DNA from: an uncultured Bacilli bacterium
GTDB taxonomy: Bacteria; Bacillota_I; Bacilli_A; RF39; UBA660
Assembly (NCBI GenBank): GCA_947585595.1
Contig: CANPXB010000003.1
Coordinates: forward strand, 20,301-84,300
Direction: 5' to 3'
DNA length: 64,000 nucleotides
Part shown: positions 2,990 through 48,900 of the stretch, one piece after another
Layout: every line of letters begins with the position of its first letter
Position numbering within the stretch: position 1 is the first letter of the stretch
Notes under the pieces: model-generated
What the model saw: only the letters and a program-made list of their open reading frames with translations
Databases searched by the model: none
Told to the model about the DNA's origin: nothing
Position numbers and translations under genes: made by a program

Positions 2990-4216
2990 ATGAAATTTTG
3001 TGAACTTAATGATATCGAATTTATGTCTTTTGTAAATTCTCGTCCCGAAAAAAACTTTTTTCAAACAACAATGATGAAAGAAAGAATTGAAAAAGATGGT
3101 CTTAAAGTATACCTAGTTGGTGTTAAAGAAGATAATCAAGTAGTTGCAGCTTCCCTTATAGCTGAAACTGGTCATACTTTTATGGGTAAAAAGACATATG
3201 AAGCTTATAAAGGCTTTATCTTAGATTATCATAATAATGAGTTACTTAAATATATGACAGAACAAGTAAGTGCTTTCTTAAAAGAAAAGAATGCTTTAAG
3301 ATTAATTATTGATCCATATATTCCTAATGTCTCACGTGATGCCGATGCTAATATTGTTGAAGGTGTTGATAACCGTGATGTTGTTAACTATCTATCCTCA
3401 TTAGGATACAAAGAAAATCCAAATGGTGCTCAAGTAAAATGGTGTTATTGTCTAGATATTGATGGTAAAACTCCAGATGAACTATTTAAAGAATTTAAAA
3501 GTAATACGAGAAATTACATTAATCGTACTATCTCTAAGTATAAGTTAGAACTAAAAACTTTAAAAAGAGATGAATTAAGTGAATTTAAACAAGTAACAAG
3601 TGATACTTGTGAAAGAAGAGATTTTGCTGATAAAACTCTTAAATACTATGAAGAAATGTATGATTGTTTTAAAGACGATGTAACATTCCAAATCTGTTCT
3701 TTAAACTGTGATACATATATTAGTGTCTTAGAAGAAGAAAATAAAACCTTTGAAGATAAAATAACTAATCTATCAGATGCTTCATCAAATAAAAAGAAAA
3801 AAGAAGAGATGAAGAAAAAACTAGAAGCTAATTTAAATAAAATAGCTGAAACTAAAAAACTTAAAAAAGAAAAAGGCAATATTATTCCTTTATCAGCAGC
3901 TATGTTTATGTTATATGGTGATGAAATAGTCTATTTATTTAGTGGTTCATATGCTGAATACATGAGTTTCTGCGGTCAATATCGTCTTCAATGGGAAATA
4001 ATTAAATATGCAGCAGAACATAATTATCAAAGATATAATTTCTATGGTATTAAAGATGTCTTTGATAAAAATGGTAAAGACTATGGTGTATATGAATTTA
4101 AAAAAGGTTTTGGTGGTTATGTCTTAGAATTAGTAGGATCTTTCGAACTAAGTCTAAGTTTCCCAGATAAAATCTATCATCTTTTAAGAAAAATAAAAAG
4201 GTTAGTGAAAAGATAA
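2990..4216 (+). CDS. FemAB-family peptidoglycan interpeptide-bridge aminoacyltransferase (second paralogue)
   Basis: Collinear with S. aureus FemA (MKF..L...EF..F, IDPY, Lys/Glu-rich coiled-coil arm, QWEIIKYA, RYNFYG, FKKGFGG). Confidence 0.9.
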   Translation: MKFCELNDIEFMSFVNSRPEKNFFQTTMMKERIEKDGLKVYLVGVKEDNQVVAASLIAETGHTFMGKKTYEAYKGFILDYHNNELLKYMTEQVSAFLKEKNALRLIIDPYIPNVSRDADANIVEGVDNRDVVNYLSSLGYKENPNGAQVKWCYCLDIDGKTPDELFKEFKSNTRNYINRTISKYKLELKTLKRDELSEFKQVTSDTCERRDFADKTLKYYEEMYDCFKDDVTFQICSLNCDTYISVLEEENKTFEDKITNLSDASSNKKKKEEMKKKLEANLNKIAETKKLKKEKGNIIPLSAAMFMLYGDEIVYLFSGSYAEYMSFCGQYRLQWEIIKYAAEHNYQRYNFYGIKDVFDKNGKDYGVYEFKKGFGGYVLELVGSFELSLSFPDKIYHLLRKIKRLVKR

Positions 4217-4707
4217 TGCATATAACACATCCTTTCGCTCCTATCTATAATAGTGAATCTAAAATTCTTATTTTAGGAACGATACCTTCGGTAAAATCAC
4301 GTGAAGTATCCTTCTATTATGGTCATCCCCAAAATAGATTTTGGCATCTTTTATCTATGGTATTTAATGAACCAATTGAAGATAATGAAGAAGCTAAAAT
4401 ATCATTTCTCTTAAATCATAAAATAGCTTTATTTGATGTCCTAAAAAGTTGTGATATTACTTCATCTAGTGATAGTTCTATTAAAAACCCTATCCCTAAT
4501 GATTTTACTGATATTATAAACAATTCTCATATTGATACCATTTTTACTACTGGTAAAAAAGCTTATGACTTATATAATAAATATTGTTATCCTAAAACAA
4601 ATATAAAAGCTATTCTTTTACCAAGTCCATCTCCGGCTAATTGTAAATTCAGTATTGAAGAATTATCTACATACTATAAAATAATTAAAGAAAAAATTAA
4701 TAATTAG
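4216..4707 (+). CDS. DNA-deoxyinosine (hypoxanthine) glycosylase-like protein, UDG superfamily family 6
   Basis: N-terminal signature ILILGTIPSVKS...FYYGHPQNRFW is typical of family-6 UDG/HDG. The start overlaps the femAB stop (TAATG). Confidence 0.65.
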   Translation: MHITHPFAPIYNSESKILILGTIPSVKSREVSFYYGHPQNRFWHLLSMVFNEPIEDNEEAKISFLLNHKIALFDVLKSCDITSSSDSSIKNPIPNDFTDIINNSHIDTIFTTGKKAYDLYNKYCYPKTNIKAILLPSPSPANCKFSIEELSTYYKIIKEKINN

Positions 4708-4732
4708 AAACTAGAGTAATCTAGTTTTTTTT
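4708..4732 (+). terminator. Rho-independent terminator
   Basis: Stem AAACTAG / CTAGTTT with a 6-nt loop, followed by T8. Confidence 0.7.
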
Positions 4733-4744
4733 AATTCCATTAGA

Positions 4745-4773
4745 TTGAACATAATATTAATATTTAGTATAAT
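4745..4773 (+). promoter_or_regulatory. Sigma-A-type promoter of the five-gene operon
   Basis: -35 TTGAAC (4745-4750), 17-nt spacer, consensus -10 TATAAT (4768-4773). It lies 25 nt upstream of the 4798 start. Confidence 0.65.
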
Positions 4774-4797
4774 AATTAATAGTAGGGAAGTGGCTAT

Positions 4798-5208
4798 ATG
4801 AGTCTTGAATATATCGATAATAATCAAAATAATTTACTAAAGAAAGTCCATATTTATAATGATAATTTTACTAAAGAACAATTAACTGAATATGAAAATA
4901 CTATCTTTACTATAAAACTTTCTCGTCGTAAAAGAGCTGAACTAGAACTAGCTCGTCTTAAACAAGAAATAAGTAAATTAGAAGATCCTGATCCATCTAT
5001 TTATGAAGAATATTTAGAATTAAGTAAATTACTTAAAGTAGCTGATTTCGATCCTAGTGTTATTGATGAAATATATGCTCGTATTGTTAAACTTCAATTA
5101 CTAAATGGTATCAGTATTCGTTTATATACTGCCTTTTCTTTATTACAAGAACAATTAGAGCATCAAATGAAATTAGTTAAAGATCCTGAAGAAAAGAAGG
5201 TGAAATAA
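4798..5208 (+). CDS. Hypothetical coiled-coil protein (operon gene 1 of 5)
   Basis: RBS GGGAAGTGG. Helical and charged sequence with no TM segment. No family recognised. Confidence 0.55.
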   Translation: MSLEYIDNNQNNLLKKVHIYNDNFTKEQLTEYENTIFTIKLSRRKRAELELARLKQEISKLEDPDPSIYEEYLELSKLLKVADFDPSVIDEIYARIVKLQLLNGISIRLYTAFSLLQEQLEHQMKLVKDPEEKKVK

Positions 5209-6830
5209 TGGATTCTACAAATACTGTAATGGTTAAATTTATCACTTATTTAAATGAGTATGTTGCTACTTTAGATAAACGCCTTCAAGATATGGAAACT
5301 CTTTATAATGCCCATAGTTACTTACTTAGCAATTATAAACAGAATGTTGATTTAGTTGAAGCTGTCTCTTCTATTCCTTTAGAAAAGATTTGTGAACTTC
5401 TATCTCTTTTTGAATCAACTTCTAAATATAGTCAGACGGAATTAGAAAATGCTCTTAAATTTTGTAAAATATGTGAATTAAACCCTAAGTTTAAAGGACA
5501 CGAAAGATATCAAGAAATGCATAGCATTTTAGAATATGTCAATAATGTCTTTACTCGTCATATCTTTAGTAATCAAAGTGAAATAAATTATAATCGTATT
5601 GAAGATACTAAATCTCTTGCTAAAAAATTTCATGATTTACAATCATTTATTAATGGTACATTACCTAATTATGTCTTAGAACCAGTAGAATCTTATTACT
5701 TTGAACACGCTAATCTTTCTCCTGAAGAATGGTTAGAAGTTTATTTTAACTTAACAATGATTCAAATAGAATACTATAAAAGAAGTGAAGATGAATTAAA
5801 AGCTGAAATAGCTACTAAAGAAGAACAACGAAGAATAGCCATGACTGAAGCTCTAGAAAAGAAAATCTTAAAATCTCTTCCAGCTGAAGATGCCTTAGTT
5901 TTAAAGCCCAATGGTCAAACAGCGGAAGTAGAAGAACCTGAAGTCGAAGAAGATATTCCAGAACCAGTAGTTAAAACATCAGAACCAAAAGGTAAACCAC
6001 TATCTAGTAATGAAGAAATAAGTCAAAAACTAGCTATCTTACAAGAAAAATATAAAGCTTATAAATACTTAGGTAAAATAACTCCAACTATGCGTGAAAG
6101 CTTTAAATTAAACTTTGATTTAAATGATATCCCATCATCTTTAGAATATGTCAAAATAGCTTATAATCCAACTGATTATCATAAATTCTTATTTTTCTGT
6201 TTCTATGAAAAATATTCAACTATTTTAAATGATGTTAGTGAACCTTATAATGAAGACTTTGATGAATATGTTGAATTTATTCTAGAAGACATCACTCAAG
6301 CTCTTGACTTCATAACTATTCTCGAAGATGAATTAGCATTAGCTGATAAAGAATTAGAACAAGCTACTGAAAGTGAATTACCACAACCTGAAGAAGTCGA
6401 AAAACCATATAAATTAATCTTCTATGATGTTAGTTCTTCTTCCGAAATTGAAAAGAATATGAAAAGTATGACTCCTGAAAAAATAAATGATTTAGTTTCT
6501 TTACTATTTCGTTTAGAAGATGGTCGTTTTGATGGTGTTAGATTCCTTAAGAAAAATACTAAAGTTGGTTTTAAATTATTAATTGGTCAATTAGTATTTG
6601 TTACTTTTAGAACTTTACCAAATAATCATATTCTTATCTTTACATCTGGTTCCTTAGAAGAAATGAATAATAATAGTGTAAATAATCGTTTAAATGCTTA
6701 TGATATAAATGTTGAAAAGAAAATAAATTCCATAATTAAAGATGGTACTTTAGAATATCGTAAATTACTAAAACGCAGTGAAGATATCCATTCATTAGTC
6801 TTCACTCAGTCACTAGGAAAAGGTGTGTAA
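5208..6830 (+). CDS. Hypothetical 540-aa acidic protein; the C-terminal ~120 aa resemble a RelE/HigB(Gp49)-like fold (operon gene 2)
   Basis: The start overlaps the upstream stop (TAATG). There is an acidic Pro/Glu linker. The C-terminal pattern YKLIFYDV...LVSLLFRLEDG...GFKLLIGQLVFVTFRTLPNNHILIF is similar to toxin-fold consensus patterns. This is judged by eye only. Confidence 0.5.
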   Translation: MDSTNTVMVKFITYLNEYVATLDKRLQDMETLYNAHSYLLSNYKQNVDLVEAVSSIPLEKICELLSLFESTSKYSQTELENALKFCKICELNPKFKGHERYQEMHSILEYVNNVFTRHIFSNQSEINYNRIEDTKSLAKKFHDLQSFINGTLPNYVLEPVESYYFEHANLSPEEWLEVYFNLTMIQIEYYKRSEDELKAEIATKEEQRRIAMTEALEKKILKSLPAEDALVLKPNGQTAEVEEPEVEEDIPEPVVKTSEPKGKPLSSNEEISQKLAILQEKYKAYKYLGKITPTMRESFKLNFDLNDIPSSLEYVKIAYNPTDYHKFLFFCFYEKYSTILNDVSEPYNEDFDEYVEFILEDITQALDFITILEDELALADKELEQATESELPQPEEVEKPYKLIFYDVSSSSEIEKNMKSMTPEKINDLVSLLFRLEDGRFDGVRFLKKNTKVGFKLLIGQLVFVTFRTLPNNHILIFTSGSLEEMNNNSVNNRLNAYDINVEKKINSIIKDGTLEYRKLLKRSEDIHSLVFTQSLGKGV

Positions 6831-6831
6831 T

Positions 6832-7032
6832 ATGGATAAAGTAAGAAGACAAGCTATTTCTTTAATTTATCAAATAACTAAAGAAATTAAAGAACATAAT
6901 ATTGAAGTCATACCTTTATGTGAACGTTTATGTTTAAGTCCTGAAGAATTTCTCGATTTAATGAATAAACCCCAAAATAATTTATCTTTATATATTGAAA
7001 TATTAGAGGAGGTGCGAAATGAAAGAGATTGA
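6832..7032 (+). CDS. Small XRE-like helix-turn-helix protein (operon gene 3)
   Basis: I prefer the ATG at 6832 (RBS GGAAAAGGTG) over the track start at 6823. LCERLCLSPEEFLDLMNKPQNNLSLYIEIL aligns with the HTH_XRE consensus (LAeklGvS...is..E.G..nPsl..l..l). Confidence 0.5.
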   Translation: MDKVRRQAISLIYQITKEIKEHNIEVIPLCERLCLSPEEFLDLMNKPQNNLSLYIEILEEVRNERD

Positions 7033-8896
7033 TGAACAATTCTTAAAAGAAATAGTTAGAATAGTTGCTAAAAGAATTAAAGAAATAAATGCCTCTATCG
7101 CTGATTCTAATGAAGGTCTTCATAAAATAGATGATTTTGATATCGTTATTAATCATATTCGTGAAAACAATCTTTGTTTCGCCAACTCCGACTTTAAAAA
7201 TAAAGTTCAATCTGTTTTAACTGGTCTTAAATTAGAAGATAAAACAATCTTAACTAAAGCTATTGATGACTTAGATTATCTATGTTTCTTAGCTGAATGT
7301 ATTGATAATGGTATGATTAATGAATATAAAGAATCAGAACTTGCTATTATTGAGCGTTTAATTAAGTCAATTGAACAAATAAAAAATATTTCTATTGCTG
7401 AAAATGATTCATATCGTCAAAGTGTATCTAAGAAAACTAATGAATTAGAACTATGTACTTCTTTATATGATAAATTACGTAAAGGAGATGAAGGCTTATT
7501 TCATTTCCAAGCTCAAGAAATCTCTTATTTATTAAATTTATTATCTTCTAAAGATATAACTTATCGTTATCATGTCCTTGATTTGATCAATCGTATGGAA
7601 GCTCAAATTACGGAGAATAATAAAGAATTCTTAAGAGCTGATATTGAAGAATTTGATTCTGAACCAGAACCAATTGAAGAAATTGATGAAGATTTAATTA
7701 TCTCTATCTTTAATAAATATAACTTTGATTATTCAATCTTTACTGATAAACAAAAAAATATCTTAAGAACTAGATGTGATTTAGGACGTATTGAAGAAGT
7801 CTTAGAAGTCTTATCTACTCGTCCTGAATATGAATTCGTCAGACAATACGGTAAATCTCGTAATATAAATGAAAAAATAAGAAGTATTAATATTCGTAAA
7901 TTATTCTTTGTTATTCGTTTTGCATCTAAAGAAACTTTAGAGTATTTAATCGAAGATGCTAAATCTCGTGGTGTCCGTGTTGAAGACATCTTCACTGTTA
8001 ATGGTGTTTATAAGAAAGTATCTCGTACTAAAGAAAATCCTGCTCCTGGTGGTGAAAGTCCAACTGATGATGACTACTTAAGTGGTTCATATGAATACTA
8101 TAAGATTAATGCTAACTTATTTGATCGTTTATCTAAAGAATATAATGCAACTCATCCTGATGCTAATATTGATTTATATCGTCAAATCCTTGAAACCTCA
8201 CCTGATGTTTTAGCAACTCCATCAGATGTTGTAGCAAGAAACGTTAAACAAGCCGACCTATATGGTATTAACTTAATTGGTGAAGATCATTATATTAAAG
8301 CTCCAACTGTCTTAACTTCACGTATCTTTATTCATCTAGTAGATGTTTTAATTGAAAATAGTGATAATCGCAATAACTTCTTTGGTTATTTATTACAATA
8401 TCCATCAATTCTTCGTGAAGAAAAAACTATTAGAAAAATCTTATATAAATTATATAAAGGTTATGAAACAACTATCGTCAATCCTACTACTAATCGTTTA
8501 AGATCAATCCGTACGGAAAAAGAACCATATGACTTAGATGAAGTAATTAATCGTGATAATATTGAAAGCTTAATTACTAATATACCTGATAGTTTAATAA
8601 CTTATATTGATGAAAATGAATATAGTATAGATAAATTCATTCAAGATGAATATACTACTCGTTTAGATAATGATCCTAATGTTGGGGAAGATGAACATGC
8701 TTATATAATTAATGGTGTTCGTGTTTCTAAATTAAAATTTAAACGTATATGGACTTTAATTATGAAAAGTGGTTTAGCAGATAATATTCCTAAAGATCAA
8801 TTATTAATCTTAGCTTTAACTTATAATAGTTATTATCGTGATAGTGATTTAACAGCTTTAAAAGAATATACTACTTCATTAGGATTTAAGGGGTGA
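7019..8896 (+). CDS. Hypothetical 625-aa helical-repeat protein with mTERF-like motifs (operon gene 4)
   Basis: RBS GAGGAGGTG. 14-nt overlap with the upstream gene. Repeats such as ETLEYLIEDAKSRGVRVEDIF, SPDVLATPSDVVARNVKQADLYGINL and LLQYPSIL resemble mTERF repeats. Confidence 0.5.
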   Translation: MKEIDEQFLKEIVRIVAKRIKEINASIADSNEGLHKIDDFDIVINHIRENNLCFANSDFKNKVQSVLTGLKLEDKTILTKAIDDLDYLCFLAECIDNGMINEYKESELAIIERLIKSIEQIKNISIAENDSYRQSVSKKTNELELCTSLYDKLRKGDEGLFHFQAQEISYLLNLLSSKDITYRYHVLDLINRMEAQITENNKEFLRADIEEFDSEPEPIEEIDEDLIISIFNKYNFDYSIFTDKQKNILRTRCDLGRIEEVLEVLSTRPEYEFVRQYGKSRNINEKIRSINIRKLFFVIRFASKETLEYLIEDAKSRGVRVEDIFTVNGVYKKVSRTKENPAPGGESPTDDDYLSGSYEYYKINANLFDRLSKEYNATHPDANIDLYRQILETSPDVLATPSDVVARNVKQADLYGINLIGEDHYIKAPTVLTSRIFIHLVDVLIENSDNRNNFFGYLLQYPSILREEKTIRKILYKLYKGYETTIVNPTTNRLRSIRTEKEPYDLDEVINRDNIESLITNIPDSLITYIDENEYSIDKFIQDEYTTRLDNDPNVGEDEHAYIINGVRVSKLKFKRIWTLIMKSGLADNIPKDQLLILALTYNSYYRDSDLTALKEYTTSLGFKG

Positions 8897-8900
8897 TTAG

Positions 8901-9212
8901 ATGTTTGAATTATTAGATGGCTTTGATTTATCACAAGAAACAATTAATTATTTAGAAGAAACATGTTCTCCTTCTGAAAGAAGAGAACTAGAAAACTGTA
9001 TTGATCGTTTCTATTCCTCTATAATGTATTTAAGAGAAATAGGTGTTACTAATAAGACAATCGAAGAAATTATTACCGAAGATCATCATATCCTACTAGC
9101 AGGTAAAGAAAATATTAAAAGAGCTTTATCTAAATTAGATAATTTAAATGCTTATGTTACTTTACTAAATAGTGATATCAAATATATGAATAATCTAAAG
9201 AATAAAAATTAG
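8901..9212 (+). CDS. Hypothetical 103-aa protein with an mTERF-like repeat (operon gene 5)
   Basis: RBS AAGGGG. The start lies 4 nt after the upstream stop. MYLREIGVTNKTIEEIITEDHHILLAGKENIKRAL resembles mTERF repeats. Confidence 0.5.
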   Translation: MFELLDGFDLSQETINYLEETCSPSERRELENCIDRFYSSIMYLREIGVTNKTIEEIITEDHHILLAGKENIKRALSKLDNLNAYVTLLNSDIKYMNNLKNKN

Positions 9213-9245: not shown

Positions 9246-10277
9246 ATGATTAAACCTCAAAGATTACAAAAAGGCGATAAAATAGCTGTAGTTAGTTTAT
9301 CTAGTGGCATGCTTGGTGATGATAATTTTATTCATAAATATTATATTGCTAAAGAAAGATTAGAAAAAGAATTTGGTTTAGAAGTTATTGCCATGCCGAA
9401 TGCCTTAAAAGGTAGTGAATTTGTTTACAAACATCCTGAAAGTAGAGCTAAAGACTTAATGGCTGCATTTAAAGACAAATCAATAAAGGGTATCTTTTGT
9501 GCTATAGGTGGTGATGATACAGTTAGATTATTACCATATATAGATTATGCAGTAATAAAAAATAATCCTAAGATCTTTATGGGATACTCTGATACCACAG
9601 TTAATCATTTAATGATGAATAAAGCTGGTATAGTATCTTTTTATGGACCATGTATAATGTGTGAATTCGGTGAATATGTTAAAATGTTTGATTATACTAA
9701 AAATGCTGTACAAAATATTTTATTTAAAGATTGTCAAAATTACGAAATAGAATCAAGTAAAATATGGTCGAATGATTTCATCGCCTGGCAAGAAGAAAAC
9801 ATTAATGTTGAGAAAAAGACAAGACCAGAAGAACATGGCTATGAAGTATTACAAGGTTCTGGAGTAGTAACAGGTGAAGTATTAGGTGGTTGTTTAGATG
9901 TCTTCCCTATGGTTGTTGGTACTGAAATATGGCCAACTAAAGAAGAATGGCAAGATAAAATATTATTACTAGAAACAAGTGAAGATAAACCAAGCCCTGA
10001 ATATATAACTTTTTACTTAAGAAACCTAGGAGCTTTAGGTATCTTTGATGTCATTAAAGGAATTATCGTTGGTAAACCACAAGATGAACAATATTATGAA
10101 GAATATAAAGAAGTTTATCAAAAAGTCTTAAAAGAATTTAATAAAGAAGACTTACCAGTTTTATATAATGTTAATATTGGTCATTCAGATCCAATAGGTA
10201 TCTTACCTTTGGGATCTACTATCAAAGTTGATTATACTAATAAAAAAATATATTTAGTTGATTCCCCATGTTTATAA
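9246..10277 (+). CDS. S66-family LD-carboxypeptidase (LdcA/MccF-like)
   Basis: N-terminal LQKGDKIAVVSLSSG, the nucleophile motif GYSDTT, and C-terminal NVNIGHSDPIGILPLG containing the catalytic His. Confidence 0.8.
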   Translation: MIKPQRLQKGDKIAVVSLSSGMLGDDNFIHKYYIAKERLEKEFGLEVIAMPNALKGSEFVYKHPESRAKDLMAAFKDKSIKGIFCAIGGDDTVRLLPYIDYAVIKNNPKIFMGYSDTTVNHLMMNKAGIVSFYGPCIMCEFGEYVKMFDYTKNAVQNILFKDCQNYEIESSKIWSNDFIAWQEENINVEKKTRPEEHGYEVLQGSGVVTGEVLGGCLDVFPMVVGTEIWPTKEEWQDKILLLETSEDKPSPEYITFYLRNLGALGIFDVIKGIIVGKPQDEQYYEEYKEVYQKVLKEFNKEDLPVLYNVNIGHSDPIGILPLGSTIKVDYTNKKIYLVDSPCL

Positions 10278-10278
10278 A

Positions 10279-10307
10279 TTGACAATCAAGATATTTAGTC
10301 TTAAAAT
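10279..10307 (+). promoter_or_regulatory. Sigma-A promoter of the aspS T-box leader
   Basis: Consensus -35 TTGACA (10279-10284), 17-nt spacer, -10 TAAAAT (10302-10307). Confidence 0.75.
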
Positions 10308-10313
10308 AACGTT

Positions 10314-10535
10314 ATAAATGTTGATTGAGAAGAGTATTATATAAAATAATTACAGAGAATTAGTGGTTGGTGGAAACTAATATAGTTTTTATATAAGAAG
10401 ACACTCAGGAGTTGACTATATGTCCGGAAAATATTTCCGTTATCAAAAAAGCGATTATGTTTAACATAATAAATTGGGTGGTACCGCGGATTTAACAGTT
10501 ATTCGTCCCTTGTGGATGATTAACTGTTTTTTATT
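10314..10535 (+). promoter_or_regulatory. T-box riboswitch leader, Asp-specific (specifier codon GAC)
   Basis: Stem I elements are present: TGAGAAGAGTA, the AG box CAGAGA and the distal GGTGGAAAC. Specifier loop GAAGACA has GAC at 10400-10402. The T-box sequence AATTGGGTGGTACCGCG lies at 10472-10488. The terminator is AACAGTTA...TAACTGTT followed by T6 (10494-10532). Confidence 0.9.
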
Positions 10536-10552
10536 TTAGAAAGGTGATTATA

Positions 10553-12289
10553 ATGGAAAAATACAAAAATTATACAATTAAAAATGTTGGTGAGGAAGTA
10601 ACTTTAAAAGGTTGGGTATCTAAAGTAAGAAACTTAGGTGGTTTAATCTTCATTGATTTAAGAAATAGAACTGGTATTATGCAAGTTGTTGTAAGACCAG
10701 AAAATAAATGTTATGAACTAGCTAATTCTCTAAAGAATGAATATGTTATCTCCGTAACTGGTAAGATAGTTGAAAGAGAAAGTAAGAATAGCACTTTAGC
10801 TACAGGTGAAATCGAAGTAGATGTTAGTAACTTAGACCTTATTAACACCTCTAAAGAGATTCCCTTTGCTATCTCTGATGATACTAATGCTTTAGAAGAT
10901 ACGAGATTAAAATATCGTTATTTAGATTTAAGAAGAGAATCTTTAAAGAATAACTTTGTAATGCGTAATAATATTACTTTTGCTACGAGAAAATTCCTAA
11001 ATAACTTAGATTTCTTAGAAGTTGAAACTCCTATTTTATGTAAATCTACTCCTGAAGGAGCTAGAGACTACTTAGTTCCAAGTCGTGTTAATAAAGGTAA
11101 GTTCTATGCATTACCACAATCGCCCCAAATCTTTAAACAATTATTAATGGTTTCTGGTTTTGAAAGATATTTCCAAATTGCTAAATGTTTTAGAGATGAA
11201 GACTTAAGAGCTGACCGTCAACCAGAATTCACGCAAATCGATGTTGAAATGTCATTTGTTAATGAAGATGATGTTATGTGGTTAGGTGAAAACTTAGTAG
11301 CTAGTATCTTTAAAGAAGTAAGAGGTATTGATATTAAATTACCATTAATGCGTATGAAATATGATGATGCCATCGCTAACTATGGTTCAGATAAACCAGA
11401 TTTAAGATTTGGTATGGAAATAAATGATATAACTGATTGCTTTACAAATACTGAATTTACGGTTTTTAAAAATGTTATGGCTGATAATGGTGTTATTAAT
11501 GCTATTGTAGTTAAAAATGCTGCTGATAAATATTCAAGAAAAGACTTAGATAAACTAACTGATTATGTTAAAACTTATAAAGCCAGTGGTCTAGCTTATA
11601 TTAAATATCAAGAAGAAATAACTGGCTCAGTAGTTAAAGTTCTAAGTGAACAAGAAATAAATGATGTTAAAGAAAAATTAAATGTTGAAAATAACGACTT
11701 AGTCTTAATTATTAGTGGTGCTTATAATGTTGTTAAAACTTCTCTAGGTGCTTTAAGATGCAAACTAGCTCGTGATTTAGATTTAATTAAAAAAGATGAT
11801 TATAAACTATTATGGGTTGTTGATTTTCCTAGCTTTGAATGGAGTGAAGAAGAAGGAAGATATATGGCTTGCCATCACCCATTTACTGCTCCTAAAGATG
11901 AAGATGTTGATAAACTATTAACTGATAAAGCTCATTGCTACAGTAAAGCTTATGATATCGTTATAAATGGTTATGAAGCTGGTGGTGGATCAATTCGTAT
12001 TCACGATGAAAAAGTTCAAGAAATTATGTTTAAAGCTCTTGAACTAACAGATGAAGATATTAAAGAAAAATTTGGTTTCTTTGTTGACGCTTTAAAATAT
12101 GGTTGCCCTCCACATGGTGGATTTGCCTTAGGACTTGACCGTCTAACAATGTTATTAGCTGGTACGGAAAACATCCGTGATGTTATTGCTTTCCCTAAAA
12201 CAGCTTCAGCTACTGACTTAATGTGTGAAGCTCCAAGTAATGTTATTAAAGAACAATTGGATGAACTAGGTCTTAAAATAAAGGAGTAG
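10553..12289 (+). CDS. aspS: Aspartate--tRNA ligase
   Basis: Class II aaRS motifs (FRDEDLRADRQPEFTQID, GGGSIRIH, GLDRL). I prefer the ATG at 10553 (RBS AAAGGTG) over the GTG at 10544, which lies inside the RBS. Confidence 0.95.
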   Translation: MEKYKNYTIKNVGEEVTLKGWVSKVRNLGGLIFIDLRNRTGIMQVVVRPENKCYELANSLKNEYVISVTGKIVERESKNSTLATGEIEVDVSNLDLINTSKEIPFAISDDTNALEDTRLKYRYLDLRRESLKNNFVMRNNITFATRKFLNNLDFLEVETPILCKSTPEGARDYLVPSRVNKGKFYALPQSPQIFKQLLMVSGFERYFQIAKCFRDEDLRADRQPEFTQIDVEMSFVNEDDVMWLGENLVASIFKEVRGIDIKLPLMRMKYDDAIANYGSDKPDLRFGMEINDITDCFTNTEFTVFKNVMADNGVINAIVVKNAADKYSRKDLDKLTDYVKTYKASGLAYIKYQEEITGSVVKVLSEQEINDVKEKLNVENNDLVLIISGAYNVVKTSLGALRCKLARDLDLIKKDDYKLLWVVDFPSFEWSEEEGRYMACHHPFTAPKDEDVDKLLTDKAHCYSKAYDIVINGYEAGGGSIRIHDEKVQEIMFKALELTDEDIKEKFGFFVDALKYGCPPHGGFALGLDRLTMLLAGTENIRDVIAFPKTASATDLMCEAPSNVIKEQLDELGLKIKE

Positions 12290-12294
12290 ATAAT

Positions 12295-13014
12295 ATGGCT
12301 TTAGAACAATACACGCCAAGTCCTCAAGCTTATCAATATAGTACAGTCGATATGATTCATGTCTATAGATATCCTGAAGAATTTATTATTCCCGAAAACC
12401 TAGAAGCTTGTAAATTGTTATGGAGTAAAAATATCTTTACCATAATGTGTAATAACTATGATAATGAAGATTCATGGATAACTATTTCTACTTTAGATGA
12501 ACATAATCGAAAAGTATTTGATGAACTATGTCAAACTAATCCAGAAAATTTTGGTCCCACCTGGGGTGGAGTAGGTATTAGAGTTCCTATTAAACCATCA
12601 CCAGGTGTTGATGCCTCCAAAAGCTTTAAAGAATTAATTGATTTATTTTCATATCAAGATGTTCAAAAAGATGGTTATATGACTAAAGAAGAATTTTTAA
12701 ACTTTCATTGTGGTTGTTTTAAATTAATACCTAATCCAGACTATCTACCTGATTTACCTGAACCAGTATATGAAGAATATCCTGATTTTAGTTCTTACAA
12801 AAAAGACCTAGAATACTATATGGCTCATACTATGATCCCTGATAAAATTCGTATTTTTGATGAAACTAAAATGGAAAAAAGTTTTGCTGAATACTTAGCT
12901 GAAAGTATATTTGCTAAATATTATGATGAGGAGAATGGTCGTATATACTATAATGAACTATATTATAATTCCCATCTAAAATATAAAAAAGAAAGTAAAG
13001 TACCTAATCTATAG
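12295..13014 (+). CDS. Hypothetical cytoplasmic protein, co-transcribed with aspS
   Basis: RBS AAAGGAG. The start lies 5 nt after the aspS stop with no intervening terminator. No family recognised. Confidence 0.55.
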   Translation: MALEQYTPSPQAYQYSTVDMIHVYRYPEEFIIPENLEACKLLWSKNIFTIMCNNYDNEDSWITISTLDEHNRKVFDELCQTNPENFGPTWGGVGIRVPIKPSPGVDASKSFKELIDLFSYQDVQKDGYMTKEEFLNFHCGCFKLIPNPDYLPDLPEPVYEEYPDFSSYKKDLEYYMAHTMIPDKIRIFDETKMEKSFAEYLAESIFAKYYDEENGRIYYNELYYNSHLKYKKESKVPNL

Positions 13015-13062: not shown

Positions 13063-13869
13063 ATGAATAAAAAAGTATTACTAACATTTTTAATTTTCCT
13101 TTTATTAGTAGCATCTTGTGCTCTAGGATTCTTTTTAGGTACTGAATATGCTAATAAAGAGAATAATACTCCTAAAGTTGAAGAAAAGACCGAAAAGGAA
13201 GAAGAAAAAGAAGAAGTCGAAGAAGAACCAAAAGTTCCTCAAGTTGAAAACATTACCTTTAACAAAGAAAAAGCTAATGAAGCCTTAGATACTTTCATGC
13301 TTGCTTTCCAAATGACTGGTTTAAATGATGATGATACTATCATCGGCCCAAGTAGAAGAAATCAAACAGAACTATTAGATGCTAAAACTAAACTTAAATT
13401 AGCATGGTACTATGTCTTTAAATCAGGTAATAGTGATAAAATAAAATATGATGCTTCACCAAGTGGTGAAGAAATAACTGGTTCAGCTGGTGTTGATCTA
13501 GAACTATATAAAAGTTTTTATCAATCTATGTATGGTGAAGAATTACCAACTAATCCAGATTATACCGTTCTAGGTTATTCTAAAGATTCCGTAAAAAATA
13601 ATATCTTATATGGTACTATGGCTTCAGGAGTTGCCACAATCTATACTGCTTTCAAAGCTAATTCAATAACTAAAACTGACGATAACTATGAACTAATTGT
13701 AGATGTTATTCATGAAGATGTAAAAGAAGATGATGAAAATCCAACTATTGAAACTTACTTAGAAAATAACCAACTATCATATCCATCTAACTTAGTAATT
13801 TATCATCTTAAAATAACTTATAAAATAGAGAATAATAAATATCTTATGAAATCAATAGTAGCTTACTAA
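13063..13869 (+). CDS. Putative lipoprotein, function unknown
   Basis: Signal peptide with a lipobox-like LVASC, followed by a Glu/Lys-rich linker. Confidence 0.55.
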   Translation: MNKKVLLTFLIFLLLVASCALGFFLGTEYANKENNTPKVEEKTEKEEEKEEVEEEPKVPQVENITFNKEKANEALDTFMLAFQMTGLNDDDTIIGPSRRNQTELLDAKTKLKLAWYYVFKSGNSDKIKYDASPSGEEITGSAGVDLELYKSFYQSMYGEELPTNPDYTVLGYSKDSVKNNILYGTMASGVATIYTAFKANSITKTDDNYELIVDVIHEDVKEDDENPTIETYLENNQLSYPSNLVIYHLKITYKIENNKYLMKSIVAY

Positions 13870-13905: not shown

Positions 13906-13933
13906 CAAGATGGAATAATAAGAGGTGTTTATT

Positions 13934-15103
13934 ATGACAGATCGTGATATTAATATAAGAAGTGTATTATTTTTAGTAATTGGTATATTACTAGTATTAT
14001 CACTTATTATTTGTATATATATTGTTGTCAATGAGAAAGACTTAGTTAAAACTGAAGCAAGTGTTATTGAAGTAAATAAAGATAATGAAGGAACAGGTAA
14101 GAATAGTATATCCGTTGTTTATATTGTTAATGGTGTTACTTATGAATATAATTTCCGTTATAAAGATGAAATAAATGTTAATGATAAAATTATCATTTAT
14201 TATCATGAAAATAGTGTTACATCTGTTCAAACATATAAAACAAGTAAGATAATCTTTGTCTGTCCATTAATAGGTTTAGTTTTATGTGGTCTAGGTATTT
14301 ATGATTTATTAAGAAAAAATAAAAAGGAAGCTAAACCAGTTGCTGCTGCTCCTAAAGTAGATCCACCTAAAGTTAAAGAAGTACCTAAAGAAGTACCAGT
14401 CGAAGAACCTACTAAAGAAATTCCAGTAGCTGATTTACCATTAGAACAAGAAATACCTGCTTTAGCTAAAACACCAGCTGAAGAACCTAAACCAGTAGTT
14501 ACTGAAGTTAAAAATCCAGAGCCAAAACCAGTTGAAGAGCCTAAAAAAGAAGAACCAGCTCCTTCTGTTGTAACTCCAGATAAATTACCAGTCAAAGAAG
14601 AAACTCCAGCTCCAGAAAAGAAAGAAGAAAAACCACTAGTTGAAGCTAGTTCAATGAAATCATTAGATGAAGTAACTGAAAAAGTTAAAAAATCAGTAGC
14701 TCAAAATATCAGTAACGATTCATCAGATGATGATATTAAAAATGTTATTAAAGAAGTCTTAAAAGAAGTAATTAAAGAAGTAAAAGAAGAAGAAAAACCA
14801 ACTACCGAAGTAGTTCAAAGAAGAATCATTCCTAACTATTTCTATATTTCTGGAACTTCATTAATCTATGAAGAAATGGGTAAAAAATCTCAAGAATTAA
14901 ACTTAAAAGATATTAAAAAAGTTGTTAGAACTATTAATAGTGCTGGTAGTGTTGTTAAACTAGTCGTATCTAATGATGCTTATAAAATAGTTTTAACTAA
15001 TATGAAAAATATTGATCTAGAACAACTAGCTAATTTATTACATAATAAAATGCGTACAATAGATGATACATTTAAAGAAATTATTGAACGTAAAGAATAC
15101 TAA
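13934..15103 (+). CDS. Membrane protein: DUF3592-like N-terminal module, Pro/Glu/Lys-rich linker, small C-terminal globular domain
   Basis: I prefer the ATG at 13934 (RBS AAGAGGTG). A TM - beta-rich segment - TM topology is followed by ~110 aa of PEK-rich low complexity. Confidence 0.5.
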   Translation: MTDRDINIRSVLFLVIGILLVLSLIICIYIVVNEKDLVKTEASVIEVNKDNEGTGKNSISVVYIVNGVTYEYNFRYKDEINVNDKIIIYYHENSVTSVQTYKTSKIIFVCPLIGLVLCGLGIYDLLRKNKKEAKPVAAAPKVDPPKVKEVPKEVPVEEPTKEIPVADLPLEQEIPALAKTPAEEPKPVVTEVKNPEPKPVEEPKKEEPAPSVVTPDKLPVKEETPAPEKKEEKPLVEASSMKSLDEVTEKVKKSVAQNISNDSSDDDIKNVIKEVLKEVIKEVKEEEKPTTEVVQRRIIPNYFYISGTSLIYEEMGKKSQELNLKDIKKVVRTINSAGSVVKLVVSNDAYKIVLTNMKNIDLEQLANLLHNKMRTIDDTFKEIIERKEY

Positions 15104-30539: not shown

Positions 30540-31775
30540 ATGAGAGATAAAAAAGATGCTCGTTTTGAACAGTTAATTGCTGGAGCTTTAGTTAAATTTG
30601 AAAAAATAGATTATGTTGGTTTAACTTTATTAAGTGGAGGATTAGGTTTAAGTGGTGTTACTTTAAGTGATGGTCCAATTATTGATATAGGTCGTTACAT
30701 AACTATTGAAGATGGAAATGTATCTCTTAAAGAAGGTTTAAGTTTAGATAATACTATGTGTGGTTATTTTACTTTAAGAGAAAAATTAGATAACTATCAA
30801 GGAGATAAAATAAGAAAGTATCTAGCTTCATTAAATATTAAAAACTTTATAATGCGTAAGATAAGAGAATATCCATCTATTCCTGTTGAAAAGAAAGAAA
30901 ACTATTTTAGTGGTCTAGAAATATCTTATCTTGAAGAATTATTAAAAGATGGTTATCTTACAGTTATATGGAATGATGATTATATTCCTGAAGATTTTCA
31001 AGAATATAAATTAACTAAAAAAGGTGAAGTAGCATTATTTAAAGAAGATAACATAGATTTATTAACTGATTTCATTCTAACTTTAGAAAGTGCTTGTTAT
31101 GATCCATCATTACTAGATGATTTTTTGATGGCGCAGAATTTACATGATCAACCACAAGAATTATTAACTTTATATAATTATGAAATCTTTGGTGATTTAT
31201 ATGATCGTAATATCTTATCTGATAATGCTGATCTACCTCAATTTAAACCATTACATTATGAACCTAAAACTGGTTATGATGAAGAATCTAAAACTTTAAT
31301 AAATGACTTATTAGGTGTCTTAGAAAGTGATCATTCGGTAATGATATGTCATCCTAATCATATCTTTAAGAATAAACCAGTTACTAAAGAAACTCCTGTT
31401 ATAACCAGAATTAATTGGGATAATATTAATCCATTAAGAATGTTACAATATGCTGATTATAGTGAATTTGTTGATGTTAATAAAGCTTATCAGTTCGCCC
31501 ATCGTCGTTTAAGACATCAAATCTTACCAGCTATAAATAATGGTGATAAAGATGTTGTTAAATATCTAGCTGTTGTTGAAAAATATGTATTAGATGGTGA
31601 AGATAACTATGTTGTAAGAGGACTTATTAAAGGAGATATCTCTAGTATTAATATTGCTTTTAATCCTGAATATGCTAAAACTATTACTCATGATATATGG
31701 AGTAGAGGTCTAAGAATGGGTGATCATAATACTCCTGAATTATATTTAAAAAAACACCCTTCTAAAGAAGAATAA
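30540..31775 (+). CDS. Hypothetical protein
   Basis: RBS AAGGAG. No TM segment and no recognised motif. Confidence 0.5.
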   Translation: MRDKKDARFEQLIAGALVKFEKIDYVGLTLLSGGLGLSGVTLSDGPIIDIGRYITIEDGNVSLKEGLSLDNTMCGYFTLREKLDNYQGDKIRKYLASLNIKNFIMRKIREYPSIPVEKKENYFSGLEISYLEELLKDGYLTVIWNDDYIPEDFQEYKLTKKGEVALFKEDNIDLLTDFILTLESACYDPSLLDDFLMAQNLHDQPQELLTLYNYEIFGDLYDRNILSDNADLPQFKPLHYEPKTGYDEESKTLINDLLGVLESDHSVMICHPNHIFKNKPVTKETPVITRINWDNINPLRMLQYADYSEFVDVNKAYQFAHRRLRHQILPAINNGDKDVVKYLAVVEKYVLDGEDNYVVRGLIKGDISSINIAFNPEYAKTITHDIWSRGLRMGDHNTPELYLKKHPSKEE

Positions 31776-44446: not shown

Positions 44447-45856
44447 ATGCCAAAAGATGAAGTAATTATAACTGACTTATTAGATGGTAACATCAAAATC
44501 TTTAGTGAACTTGATAATTACTTTAAAGAAGTAGTTTGTGATAATATTCGTTCCCATCCTAATCGTTTAAATATTTTAAAATCTTGTTTTTCCAAAATCC
44601 AACCCGAATATCCATATCATGCTTTTTTAATGGCCTTTGATTTACCTGAATATGCTTCAATCTGTGAATATATTCTTCTTAAAAACCCATCTATCTTAAC
44701 TAACAATCGATTATTCTATGAATTACTATCTTGTAATCATTGGATAATTGATTATGTTGATACTCATCTTGATCAAGTAGTTGAATCTAACTTTGATAAT
44801 ATCTTCTGTTTACTTAGATATTCTTTTCAGTACCATAAAGATACATGGTTAAATCATTTAATTAATCATCCAGACTTATTAATTAGAATTCATACTATGT
44901 ATACAATGATTTGCGATTTCCCTCATCTTTTTAAAAAGTACTATCCTAATCCAATATCATTACTAAAGGTAACCCATGAAGATGGTAAAGTAGATATCGT
45001 TGATGAATCATACTTATCTAAAATAGCTGTTTTAATTATTCTTAACTTAAATGATTTAACTTTATATCAAGAACTTAAAAACTTTATTTTTACTAACTAT
45101 CCATCTAATACTTTAGCTAGTATTATTGATACTTATATTATTGTTGAAGATGAAGAAATCTTAAAGAAACTTTTATTAGCTGATATCGATGAATTATTTA
45201 AAACTTCTAAAAACTATAAATGGCAATTATATCATTACTATCAAAAACATTTATCACCAGAACTAGTCTCTGATTTTGCCAACCAAATAAGACCATTTGC
45301 TAATTTATTCCCTGATGAAGTAATTGAAGGTATGTCGACACGTGGCTTACTTACTAAATTTATCGAACTAATGCATAAATATTTAGAACTAAGTACTAGA
45401 GCTAAATGTATTAGTAATGTTGGTGAAGGAACTTGTTCTTACGTTTATCGTGTTGGAGATTATATAATTAAATATTCTGATAAAAAATATTCATATGAAG
45501 AAAGTATATGCCCTAATCTATATTTAATAGCTAAAAACTATGAAGAAATAATTAATCGTGATTATTATGGTCATGTAACTGGTGCTTTAGAAGTTCAAAA
45601 GTATTTATCTAAAGTTGTCCTACCAGCAGAGACTGAATTATTAGCTAAATGGCAGAATGCCTTAAAAGAAGAAGGCTACTATCTAGTTGATGACTTAGTT
45701 GGTCAGAAGGTTGGTAGTAATTGCCTTCGCCTTGATGATTATCATGATGCAGATACTAAAGATCCAGAAAACCTACCAGAATGGTTTAAAAAAGATCCTG
45801 TAGTTTTAGTTGATCGTGACTTAATCTATACTTATAAGCCTAGTTCTCATAACTAG
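44447..45856 (+). CDS. Hypothetical 469-aa protein; the C-terminus has a degenerate kinase-like Gly-loop
   Basis: A helical N-terminal ~320 aa is followed by VGEGTCSYVYRVGDYIIKY, LVDDLVGQKVGSN and VLVDRD. Confidence 0.45.
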   Translation: MPKDEVIITDLLDGNIKIFSELDNYFKEVVCDNIRSHPNRLNILKSCFSKIQPEYPYHAFLMAFDLPEYASICEYILLKNPSILTNNRLFYELLSCNHWIIDYVDTHLDQVVESNFDNIFCLLRYSFQYHKDTWLNHLINHPDLLIRIHTMYTMICDFPHLFKKYYPNPISLLKVTHEDGKVDIVDESYLSKIAVLIILNLNDLTLYQELKNFIFTNYPSNTLASIIDTYIIVEDEEILKKLLLADIDELFKTSKNYKWQLYHYYQKHLSPELVSDFANQIRPFANLFPDEVIEGMSTRGLLTKFIELMHKYLELSTRAKCISNVGEGTCSYVYRVGDYIIKYSDKKYSYEESICPNLYLIAKNYEEIINRDYYGHVTGALEVQKYLSKVVLPAETELLAKWQNALKEEGYYLVDDLVGQKVGSNCLRLDDYHDADTKDPENLPEWFKKDPVVLVDRDLIYTYKPSSHN

Positions 45857-45934: not shown

Positions 45935-48900
45935 ATGAATAAGAAGTATAAAATTGGTGTTGATATTGGTTCAACTACCGTTAAATTAGTCATAATGGAT
46001 CATCAAAATAAAATAATCCATAAAGCATATAAAAGACATTTATCTGATTCTAAAAAAACCATTATTGGTTTATTTAAAAATGCCTTAAAAAAGTTTGATA
46101 GTGATAGTAAATTTTCTTTAATTTTTACTGGTAGTGGTGCTATCTCTTTAGCCAAATATTTAAAAGTTCCTTTTATTCAAGAAGTTATTGCTTGTAAAAA
46201 TGCTATCACTACTTATGCTCCTTCAACTAATGTTGCTATTGAACTAGGTGGTGAAGATGCTAAAATCATTTATTTTGATCAAACTATTGAACAAAGAATG
46301 AATGGTTCTTGTGCTGGTGGTACTGGGGCTTTCTTAGACCAAATGGCTATCTTACTTAATACCACTACTTCTGGACTTAATGATTTAGCTAAAAAAGGTG
46401 ATACTATTTATCCAATCGCTTCTCGTTGTGGCGTATTTGCTAAAACGGATATTCAACCTTTATTAAATGAAGGATGTAAAAAAGAAGATGTCGCTTTATC
46501 TATCATGCAAGCTGTTGTTAATCAAACTATTAGTGGCTTAGCTTGTGGTAAACCAATTAAAGGTAATGTTATCTTCTTAGGTGGTCCATTAAACTATCTA
46601 TCGGTTTTAAAAGAACGCTTTATTAAAACATTAAACCTAACTAAAAATGAAGTAATCGCCCCTAAAGATGCTAATCTTTTCGTTTGTATGGGTGCTTGCT
46701 TAGATAATAGTAAAAGAAAATATTATTCTAAAGAAGATATCTTATCTTTACTTAAAGACTTAAAAGCTTTTAAAGAAGAAACATCTAGTAGCTTAGAACC
46801 TCTATTTAAAAATGATAAAGATTATCACTCTTTCTTAGAAAGACATAGTAAATATAAAGTAAAAAGAAAAGATATAACTAAATATAAAGGTGATGCCTTC
46901 CTAGGTATTGATGCTGGTTCAACTACTGCTAAATTAGTTTTGATTGATAAAGATGGTAACTTATTATATGAAGATTATCAAAGTAATAAAGGAACACCAG
47001 TTGATACTTTAAAAGATATGTTATGTAAATTATATCAAGTATTAAATAAAGATATTATTATCCGTAATGCTGGTTCTACTGGTTATGGTGAAATGTTAAT
47101 TAAAACCGCTTTTAACTTAGATATATCTGAAGTTGAAACTATCTCCCACTTTGAAGCGGCTAATTACTTCTTACCAGGTGTTGAAAGTATTATCGATATT
47201 GGTGGTCAAGATATGAAATATATCAAGATTAAAGATAACTCCGTAAATAGTATCATGCTTAATGAAGCCTGTTCATCTGGTTGTGGTTCATTTATTGAAA
47301 CTCTAGCTAAATCATTAGGTATGGATGTTAATGACTTTGTTCATCTAGCTATAACTTCTAAAAGTCCCATTGACTTAGGTTCTCGTTGTACCGTATTCAT
47401 GAATTCTAAAATTAAACAAACCCAAAAAGAAGGTCGACCTTTAGCCGATATCTTTGCTGGTTTAGCCTATTCTGTAATTAAAAATGCTATTACTAAAGTT
47501 ATGAAAATAAGAGATATTAGTACTTTAGGTAATAAAATAGTTGTTCAAGGTGGTACTTTCTTAAATGATGCCGTCTTAAGAGCTTTTGAAATCATAACTG
47601 GTAAAGAAGTTATAAGACCTGATATATCTGGTTTAATGGGTGCTTATGGTATTGCTTTAATTGCTTTAAATAATTACAAAGCTTATGAAGATAAAGATGT
47701 TGTTAGTTCTATTCTTACTTTAGATCAAATCAATAACTTAAAAATAAGAACTAATCATACTAGATGCCAAGGTTGTGAAAACCATTGTGCTTTAACTATC
47801 AATATGTTTGATAAAAAAGTCTTTATCTCTGGTAATCGTTGTGAAAAAGGTTCCGGTAATAATGGTAGTACTAATATGTTACCTAATATGTATGCTTGGA
47901 AATATGATCGTTTATTTAACTATGAACCATTAGAAAATCCAAAAAGAGGATTAATTGGTATTCCTCGTGTCTTAAATATGTATGAAGATTATCCACTATG
48001 GTTTACTATCTTTACTAACTTAGGTTTTAAAGTTGTTCTTTCCGATAACTCAAGTCGTAGTTTATATGAATCAGGTATTGAATCAATGCCAAGTGAATCA
48101 GTATGTTACCCCGCTAAATTAGTTCATGGCCATATTCTTAATTTAATTAAAAAAGGTGTTAAAACTATTTTCTATCCATGTATAATGTATGAACAAGATG
48201 AATTTGCTTCTTCTGATAATCACTATAATTGTCCTATTGTTCAAAGTTATTCAGAATCTATTAAATTAAACGTCGAAGACTTAGAAAAAAATAAAATAAA
48301 ATATTTAAATCCTTTCTTACCTTTAGAAGAAGATAAACTGGTTAAAAGATTTATGGAATTACCTGAGTTTAAAGAATATCATTTTACTTTAAAAGAAGTA
48401 AAAAATGCTATTCATGAAGGATTCTTAGAACTAAGTAATTATAAAAATGAAGTAAGAGCTAAAGGTGAAGAATTTATTAAATTCGTTAATGATCATAATG
48501 AAAAAGCTATTGTCTTAGCTGGTCGTCCATATCATTTAGATAAAGAAGTTAACCATGGTATAGATACGATGATAAATAGTTTAGGTTTAGCTGTTCTTAC
48601 TGAAGATTCTATCTGTCATTTAAGTCGTATTAAATCTAAATTAAGAGTTGTTGACCAATGGTCATATCATTCACGTGTTTATAATGCTGCTGATGTAGTT
48701 AGTCAGTATCCTAATCTAGAATTAGTCGAACTTAATTCCTTTGGCTGTGGTTTAGATGCCATTGTTACCGATCAAACTGAAGAAATCTTAAAAGCTAATA
48801 ATCGTTTATATACCACAATTAAAATAGATGAAATAAATAATTTAGGTGCTGTTAAAATCCGTATTAGATCATTAATAGCCTCGATGAATAAACGTCTTAA

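Follow-up and report, generated by a model that had tools for sequence, protein, structure and literature searches.

A conserved, translationally coupled five-gene operon of acidic proteins outside known families in uncultured Bacilli

A stretch of 64,000 nucleotides (nt) from an uncultured Bacilli bacterium (GenBank assembly GCA_947585595.1, contig CANPXB010000003.1, positions 20,301 to 84,300; hereafter the window, with a G+C content of ~27%) carries at 4798-9212 a compact run of five open reading frames (ORFs), all on the plus strand, whose products are here called gp1 to gp5. The run is a real operon with its own promoter, and its genes are translationally coupled. The five proteins lie outside the curated family libraries and the fold space that were searched, yet selection has kept the cassette whole over deep divergence in common gut Bacillota, and its products probably make up an undescribed type of soluble assembly of several proteins. 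Uncultured Bacillota have their share of conserved "dark-matter" operons, among which this one is set apart by its strict conservation, its strong constitutive promoter, confident models that show no known fold and a possible connection with mTERF-like proteins of bacteria.

Operon structure and conservation of the cassette

The first gene encodes gp1, an acidic small protein of 136 amino acids (aa; 4798-5208), and overlaps the start of the gene for the large protein gp2 (540 aa; 5208-6830) in a TAATG junction. A gap of 1 nt follows before the gene for the small acidic protein gp3 (66 aa; 6832-7032), which in turn overlaps that for gp4 (625 aa; 7019-8896) by 14 nt, and a gap of 4 nt precedes the last gene, for gp5 (103 aa; 8901-9212). 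An earlier interpretation of the window made from its letters alone (the sequence-only reading) had described these five coupled ORFs and all four junctions, and the sequence bears it out, save that its length of 67 aa for gp3 had included the stop codon. Every downstream start is served by a strong Shine-Dalgarno (SD) sequence inside the upstream ORF (GAAGGTGA, AAAGGTGTG, GAGGAGGTG and AAGGGGTGA), and the gp1 start is itself preceded by the SD GGGAAGTGG. The SD of gp4, GAGGAGGTG, is encoded by the invariant C-terminus of gp3 (...EILEEVRNERD), and in all eight loci examined on this point the SD likewise lies within the upstream ORF. A GTG at 6823, which lies inside the SD, is an unlikely start for gp3.

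Upstream of the operon, an intrinsic-terminator-like hairpin with a T-run (4706-4732, plus strand) closes the preceding gene, of the uracil-DNA glycosylase (UDG) family, and insulates the operon from it. In RNA folding the hairpin at 4706-4729 with its T-run reaches -9.4 kcal/mol (z = -2.9 against shuffled sequences); it is kept in the related locus L005, and was missed by a consensus scan because its stem is AT-rich. Behind the terminator stands the near-consensus sigma-A-type promoter that the sequence-only reading had placed there, TTGAAC-17-TATAAT (10 of 12 positions; 4745-4773, plus strand), ending 24 nt before the gp1 start. The match by itself is not evidence, since shuffled sequence yields promoter-like hexamers at the same frequency (46 expected, 45 found). 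What argues for a functional promoter is conservation across loci. The two closest relatives, L005 and L006, have the -35 box, extended -10 box and SD unchanged; in 11 of 14 loci the first cassette gene starts 22-38 nt beyond the end of a sigma-A-type promoter that matches at 10-12 of 12 positions; and in L012 and L013 the sequence before the cassette is the perfect consensus TTGACA-17-TATAAT.

Comparison of genomic contexts at loci L001 to L017 found cassette order and gene sizes co-conserved in more than 15 contigs, across which the identity of gp4 drops to ~16-20%. In L001-L011 and L015 the products measure 122-137, 529-552, 63-80, 616-650 and 98-103 aa; in L016 they measure 512, 67, 675 and 95 aa; and in L012-L014 and L017 they measure 152-164, 512-644, 603-622 and 95 aa, with an additional gene of 200 aa in L017, placed between those of 164 and 512 aa. 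The genes for gp4 and gp5 are always present, a gp1-like and a gp2-sized gene nearly always, and gp3 is optional; the gp2 slot is always filled by a gene of 510-640 aa. Searches with hidden Markov models (HMMs) confirm homology across loci for gp1, gp3, gp4 and gp5. Orthologues of gp1 occur in 10 loci and in L015 (E 1e-15), with a weak match to a 153-aa protein in L013 (E 1e-3), and gp3 has homologues in L015 (E 7e-17) and L016 (E 2e-6) and is absent from L009, L012-L014 and L017. At every locus the cassette ends with a gp5 homologue (E 3e-7 to 8e-15; hhalign probability 96.5%).

The gp4 family is large. An exhaustive, profile-based hmmsearch at a cut-off of E <= 1e-3, counted as cluster representatives, returned 215 (80 at E <= 1e-10), mostly of ~600 aa and matching end to end. 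A word-index search of 5.8 billion proteins gave just 12 gp4 relatives and 4 gp2 relatives and so badly under-reported the family, even with a profile, that the exhaustive HMM search was required. Three gp4-family proteins (P0042, P0044 and P0047; 761-785 aa) are longer at the N-terminus by ~197 residues, a stretch that matches nothing in Pfam and does not detectably resemble gp1, gp2, gp3 or gp5. Relatives of gp4 were absent from 50,697 phage records (searched by tblastn), from 72,556 plasmids and from IMG/VR. Synteny is stable within clades, beside core genes, and the cassette is chromosomal and non-mobile; its carriers are a clade of Bacillota made up of uncultured gut Bacilli and spore-forming relatives. 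The flanks vary by lineage: UDG and FemAB genes, MscS, a cation-efflux gene, ruvAB-queA-tgt, or gpr-spoIIP, the last immediately upstream of the cassette in L012-L014 and L017. A check of gene-neighbourhood conservation, which the sequence-only reading had proposed, finds the genes co-conserved as a cassette over distant genomes, despite differing flanks.

Ratios of non-synonymous to synonymous substitution (dN/dS) of 0.17-0.52 over the five genes (0.38-0.52 for gp1, 0.23-0.28 for gp2) place all of them under purifying selection. Between the window and L001, identity is 36-43% for all five proteins and 84% for the aspartyl-tRNA synthetase (AspRS); against L005 the figures are 59-76% and 92%. 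By this comparison the five proteins diverge in parallel, and much faster than neighbouring enzymes. Two fusions hint that the large subunits act together: P0067 has an N-terminus like the N-terminal domain of gp2 (hhalign 83%) followed by a match to the C-terminal part of the gp4 profile, and in P0080 a gp4-like body (hhalign 98.7%) comes after a segment less similar to that domain (55%). Two further proteins depart from the usual form. P0054 (225 aa) joins gp2 profile positions 90-225 (E 3e-11) to gp4 528-617 (E 6e-16), through an internal deletion or a chimeric assembly. In L010 (573-2260) the gp2 orthologue is split into ORFs of 469 and 94 aa, a frameshift, pseudogene or assembly error, and the rest of the cassette is intact.

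Subunit architecture and the mTERF-like signal

All five proteins are acidic, with isoelectric points (pI) of 4.9-5.5 and net charges of -3 to -30. None has a signal peptide and none a transmembrane (TM) segment, the highest 19-residue Kyte-Doolittle mean being 1.32; the sequence-only reading had likewise seen no TM segment. It had also called the proteins acidic and helical, and AlphaFold2 (AF2) models, built for gp2 and gp4, agree that these two are mostly helical, each with a small beta element besides. When the five were compared by hmmscan with Pfam-A, NCBIfam, PHROGs and PADLOC (PADLOC-DB v2), nothing better than E ~0.02 was returned; PADLOC gave zero matches at E <= 1, and the best E value in PHROGs was 0.04 or worse. 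Not one of the 215 gp4-family representatives has a name or a Pfam domain, and no member matches LXG or WXG100 in Pfam. The checks that had been suggested, namely profile searches and Foldseek comparison of AF2 models (here of gp2 and gp4), assign no characterised complex. Judged by the absence of matches in the libraries searched, the cassette appears to belong to no known kind of system. The view that its proteins have no recognisable family accordingly holds for these libraries and for the PDB, but they are not fully featureless: a weak mTERF-like signal can be seen in gp5 and in central gp4, and two domains are locally basic.

The gp4 model, built from a 12-sequence alignment, is confident (mean pLDDT, the predicted local distance difference test, 83). 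A bundle of very long helices (1-203) leads through an acidic disordered linker (204-222) into a helical-repeat region (223-520), modelled as a run of short helices, of which 223-334 is basic (pI ~9 in the window clade); a loop at 335-355 is disordered with conserved flanks. The conserved C-terminal domain holds a three-stranded sheet (555-570), and nowhere is the superfamily better conserved than in this C-terminal part. The layout of gp2 is comparable, with a helical bundle (1-223), an acidic disordered linker (224-266), a helical domain (267-388) and a basic alpha/beta C-terminal domain (~401-540), whose pI in the window clade is again ~9 over 401-540. Its model (pLDDT 69) is confident for 1-223 and 267-388 and poor for the C-terminal alpha/beta region. 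The two basic segments, gp4 223-334 and gp2 401-540, each stand directly behind a strongly acidic disordered linker. Foldseek searches used the full-length models, of gp2 and gp4 against the PDB and of gp4 against BFVD. They gave no match for gp4 (best E 0.38 in the PDB, and 0.035 in BFVD to tape-measure-like helices) and only generic helical bundles for gp2. Profile searches of the PDB sequence set found nothing significant for gp4, and gp2 had no PDB match with a profile from its orthologue alignment.

Several relationships were considered for these proteins, and most were rejected. That gp2 and gp4 are paralogues is contradicted by a full-alignment hhalign probability below 1%, and the same value, for gp5 alignments against those of gp4 and gp2, speaks against gp5 as a fragment of gp4, weak signals being confined to comparisons of sub-domains. 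A RelE/ParE-like toxin in the gp2 C-terminus, to which a YKLIFY...VFVTFR...NHILV pattern had led, was dropped for want of Pfam support and given the poor AF2 model of that region; a Pfam scan of eight isolated gp2 C-terminal domains at E <= 5 found no RelE, ParE, HigB or Gp49 toxin family. For gp3, a role as a helix-turn-helix regulator would be tentative, the matches to HTH_20, HTH_35 and DUF7724 being sub-threshold and confined to one or two members.

An mTERF array consists of repeated three-helix motifs of ~30-35 residues that form a solenoid. A likeness to such repeats, seen in gp5 and in the centre of gp4, is the sole homology clue to the cassette, and a weak, recurrent one. Against Pfam mTERF (PF02536) gp5 scores E 0.018 and 14.4 bits, under the cutoff of 23.1, and a sub-threshold match is found in 3 of 10 gp5 orthologues. 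With a broad gp5 profile the top match in the PDB is human MTERF3 (MTERFD1, 3m66), at a borderline E = 0.001 that had improved from 0.14 on the addition of distant orthologues and is followed by a next match at 0.23; gp5 residues ~33-78 align to the mTERF motif of MTERF3. In the central region of gp4, mTERF is the sole recurrent Pfam family (3 of 26 relatives, best E 8.5e-4). The internal repeats of gp4 are ~40-45 residues long, with short helices, and hhalign relates 223-334 to 358-425 (65%) and 358-425 to 421-485 (76%), the segment 358-425 being also weakly like the gp5 motif (18%, E 1.4e-3).

The only report so far of prokaryotic mTERF-like proteins is that of the pTERFs (PMC11417379), single DNA-binding tandem-repeat proteins of 3-11 units from metagenome-assembled genomes of animal-gut Bacillota. 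The source is alike. The differences are that pTERFs stand alone with 3-11 units, whereas the cassette comprises five genes and gp5 would have 2-3 units at most, and that mTERF and pTERF proteins bind nucleic acids, whereas the cassette proteins are acidic overall.

A candidate assembly and its rivals

In light of this evidence, the reading favoured here is that the cassette encodes a constitutive, non-enzymatic cytoplasmic complex whose repeats and basic domains hold a nucleic acid or a partner protein. To that statement as a whole we would give a probability of roughly 0.4, and the complex is a more likely part of it than the nucleic acid. We infer a hetero-oligomeric complex, and likewise its ligand and role. 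The sequence-only reading had taken the tight coupling to suggest stoichiometric co-production for a complex; the parallel divergence, the conserved coupling through SDs within ORFs and the fusions of gp2-N-like with gp4-like parts strengthen that suggestion, short of demonstrating it.

In such an assembly the gp4/gp5 pair would be the invariant core, gp2-type large and gp1-type small subunits would be its partners nearly everywhere, and gp3 would be a clade-specific accessory. The two large subunits follow a shared logic of a long-helix N-terminal bundle, an acidic disordered linker and globular domains, with the bundles likely serving as a platform for oligomerisation or partner binding. Central gp4 would consist of arrayed helical repeats and gp5 would represent a related motif as a separate protein, both of them faintly mTERF-like. 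These repeat modules, together with gp4 223-334 and the gp2 C-terminus, might hold nucleic acid, or possibly a partner protein, and the acidic linkers might act as intramolecular competitors that modulate binding. The long-helix bundles, with gp1 and gp3, would put the subunits together in fixed stoichiometry. The assembly as a whole would represent a chromosomal, lineage-specific "housekeeping" feature with a vegetative sigma-A promoter. Proteins that are soluble, acidic and mostly helical, encoded in compact operons, devoid of catalytic motifs and equipped with long helices for oligomerisation are familiar from non-enzymatic helical scaffolds of Bacillota such as RicA/RicF/RicT and coiled-coil organisers of the EzrA/GpsB/DivIVA type. 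The likeness is a general one; the cassette has no sequence or fold similarity to these proteins, and neither Fe-S cysteine motifs nor membrane anchors are seen in its products.

Several observations weigh against this interpretation. Co-transcription and co-conservation fall short of proving a complex, and homology to gp2 is undetectable in the gp2-sized proteins beyond L015. Every mTERF score stays under its curated threshold (14.4 against 23.1 bits for gp5; best E 8.5e-4 for a gp4 relative), and Foldseek with the confident gp4 model placed no mTERF structure among the top 50. The whole proteins are all acidic, which disfavours nucleic-acid binding, and the basicity of gp4 223-334 is not kept in the wider family (median pI 5.9). 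Finally, the rapid divergence would also suit a conflict-related role. A bolder proposal, in which mTERF-like repeats in gp4 and gp5, with gp1 to gp3 as partners, make up an unrecognised multi-subunit nucleic-acid machine, for example a roadblock or termination complex on chromosome or transcript or a ribosome-biogenesis complex, confined to Erysipelotrichales-like Bacilli and bearing on how organellar mTERF proteins arose, is fairly unlikely.

Other explanations start from the neighbourhood or from the pace of evolution. A cytoplasmic scaffold for the cell envelope or for sporulation, for example in peptidoglycan remodelling or engulfment, would fit the two FemAB genes and the LD-carboxypeptidase gene of the window, the gpr-spoIIP pair of L012-L014 and L017, the CHAP hydrolases downstream in L013 and L014, and the PASTA protein (L002), glycosyltransferases (L015) and BacA (L016) encoded nearby. 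Yet not one envelope gene is a conserved neighbour, LdcA being missing in the nearest relatives, and the cassette is kept in lineages with no sporulation gene seen nearby. The perfect sigma-A promoter between spoIIP and the cassette implies vegetative, independent expression, and proteins without TM segments or signal peptides are not what an envelope role would lead one to expect; such a scaffold is unlikely. The fast and concerted divergence of the five proteins relative to housekeeping genes, and their lack of any known family, typical of newly found defence genes, might suggest a new type of anti-phage defence or another conflict system, the more so as NERD, Schlafen-like helicase or AAA_14 genes lie within a few kb at some loci. 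A defence role had also been implied by the PADLOC check proposed in the sequence-only reading; with zero matches there, that idea gains no support. Furthermore, the proteins contain no nuclease, ATPase, NTPase, TIR, Sir2 or other effector-type domain, the promoter is strong and constitutive, and dN/dS is well below 1. Synteny is clade-stable at a single chromosomal position by core genes, rather than patchy or mobile, and plasmids, phages and IMG/VR are devoid of relatives, all of which makes defence improbable.

The size pattern of the cassette (small helical, large, small, large, and a last gene of ~100 aa) recalls the LXG/Lap chaperone and immunity operons of the type VII secretion system (T7SS) of Firmicutes, which share the alternation of small helical with large proteins of long-helix N-terminus, the small last gene and the tight coupling. 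On this view gp1 and gp3 would take the part of small helical chaperones, gp2 and gp4 that of secreted effectors with helical N-termini and gp5 that of the immunity protein, and weak matches of gp5 to Imm3 (E = 0.021) and of the gp4 N-terminus to ESAT-6-like HP0062 (E = 0.04), as well as WXG100 genes a few kb downstream in L013 and L014, point the same way. However, the cassette has no LXG, WXG100 or toxin domain, whether by Pfam or, for toxin folds, in the Foldseek searches, and its acidic, cytoplasmic proteins bear no known signal for secretion. It is a conserved core chromosomal feature in which the gp4 C-terminus is the part conserved most, and not a polymorphic toxin domain; no T7SS genes occur among the window genes examined, and the WXG100 neighbours are confined to one lineage. 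Of all the readings this is the most improbable. At the other extreme, the five genes might be functionally unrelated lineage-specific orphans that happen to be transcribed together, or what is left of a decayed mobile element: all are unannotated, small ORFs without annotation are common in low-GC genomes, and the promoter-like motif alone is at chance level. Order, sizes and coupling are nevertheless kept down to 16-20% gp4 identity in different chromosomal contexts, all five genes are under purifying selection, fusion proteins tie gp2-like to gp4-like parts, and phage or plasmid relatives were not found; this explanation is about as improbable as defence.

A conserved dark cassette with a strong constitutive promoter generally points to a cellular machine that has been overlooked, not to junk. 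Should the mTERF-like signal prove true, the cassette would join a very small number of bacterial systems made from such repeats and would be the first to have a repeat protein of this type in a multi-subunit operon. More broadly, even a mundane function, once defined, would annotate several families at once, gp4 alone accounting for 215 cluster representatives, in little-understood organisms few of which are cultured.

Neighbouring genes and other features of the window

The sequence-only reading had set the operon between cell-wall and DNA-repair housekeeping genes. Such neighbours are indeed present in the window, but they are neither conserved nor functionally informative. Upstream lie tandem FemAB-family paralogues (1735-2976 and 2990-4216, plus strand), and the start of the UDG-superfamily gene overlaps the stop of the second (4216), so that the three are tightly packed. 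Downstream, as had been remarked, no terminator separates gp5 from an LD-carboxypeptidase gene (Peptidase_S66; 9246-10277, plus strand), which lies between gp5 and aspS in the window only. In L005 (7011-7280) gp5 leads directly to the aspS leader, and in L006 (12193-14300) it is followed by a convergent uvrB. The LD-carboxypeptidase was accordingly rejected as a sixth member of the cassette, being missing there in these nearest relatives, and the 3' edge of the cassette has recently changed locally, by the gain or loss of a gene or by rearrangement. The next transcription unit begins after the LD-carboxypeptidase gene, with a promoter matching at 11 of 12 positions (10279-10307) that precedes a T-box leader (10312-10513, plus strand; Rfam RF00230, 123 bits, E 8e-27) upstream of aspS (10544-12289).

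In the spore-formers, membership of the cassette in an operon with gpr-spoIIP was likewise rejected: the perfect TTGACA-17-TATAAT promoter in the short gap after spoIIP makes the cassette a vegetative transcription unit of its own. A literature search on the gpr-spoIIP neighbourhood found nothing relevant. Directly downstream of the cassette in L013 (10237-17257) and L014 (9325-16351) are genes for two CHAP, three WXG100 and one phage-lysozyme-2 protein, a cluster that resembles a T7SS substrate locus and is not conserved beside the cassette elsewhere.

Elsewhere in the window, a "tRNA-Stop (tta)" called by ARAGORN at 47630-47727 (plus strand) lies inside a 1406-aa ORF (45935-50155) whose product is a BcrAD/BadFG-type CoA-enzyme activase with DUF2229; the call is almost certainly a false positive. 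Further ORFs of 239-469 aa without a Pfam match are found at 745-1707, 12295-13014, 13063-13869, 13925-15103, 30540-31775, 44447-45856 and 53640-54758. Orthologues of two of them, 12295-13014 and 13063-13869, lie downstream of aspS in L005 with identities of 63% and 47%, against 92% for AspRS, so that fast-evolving, lineage-specific proteins are common in this genome.

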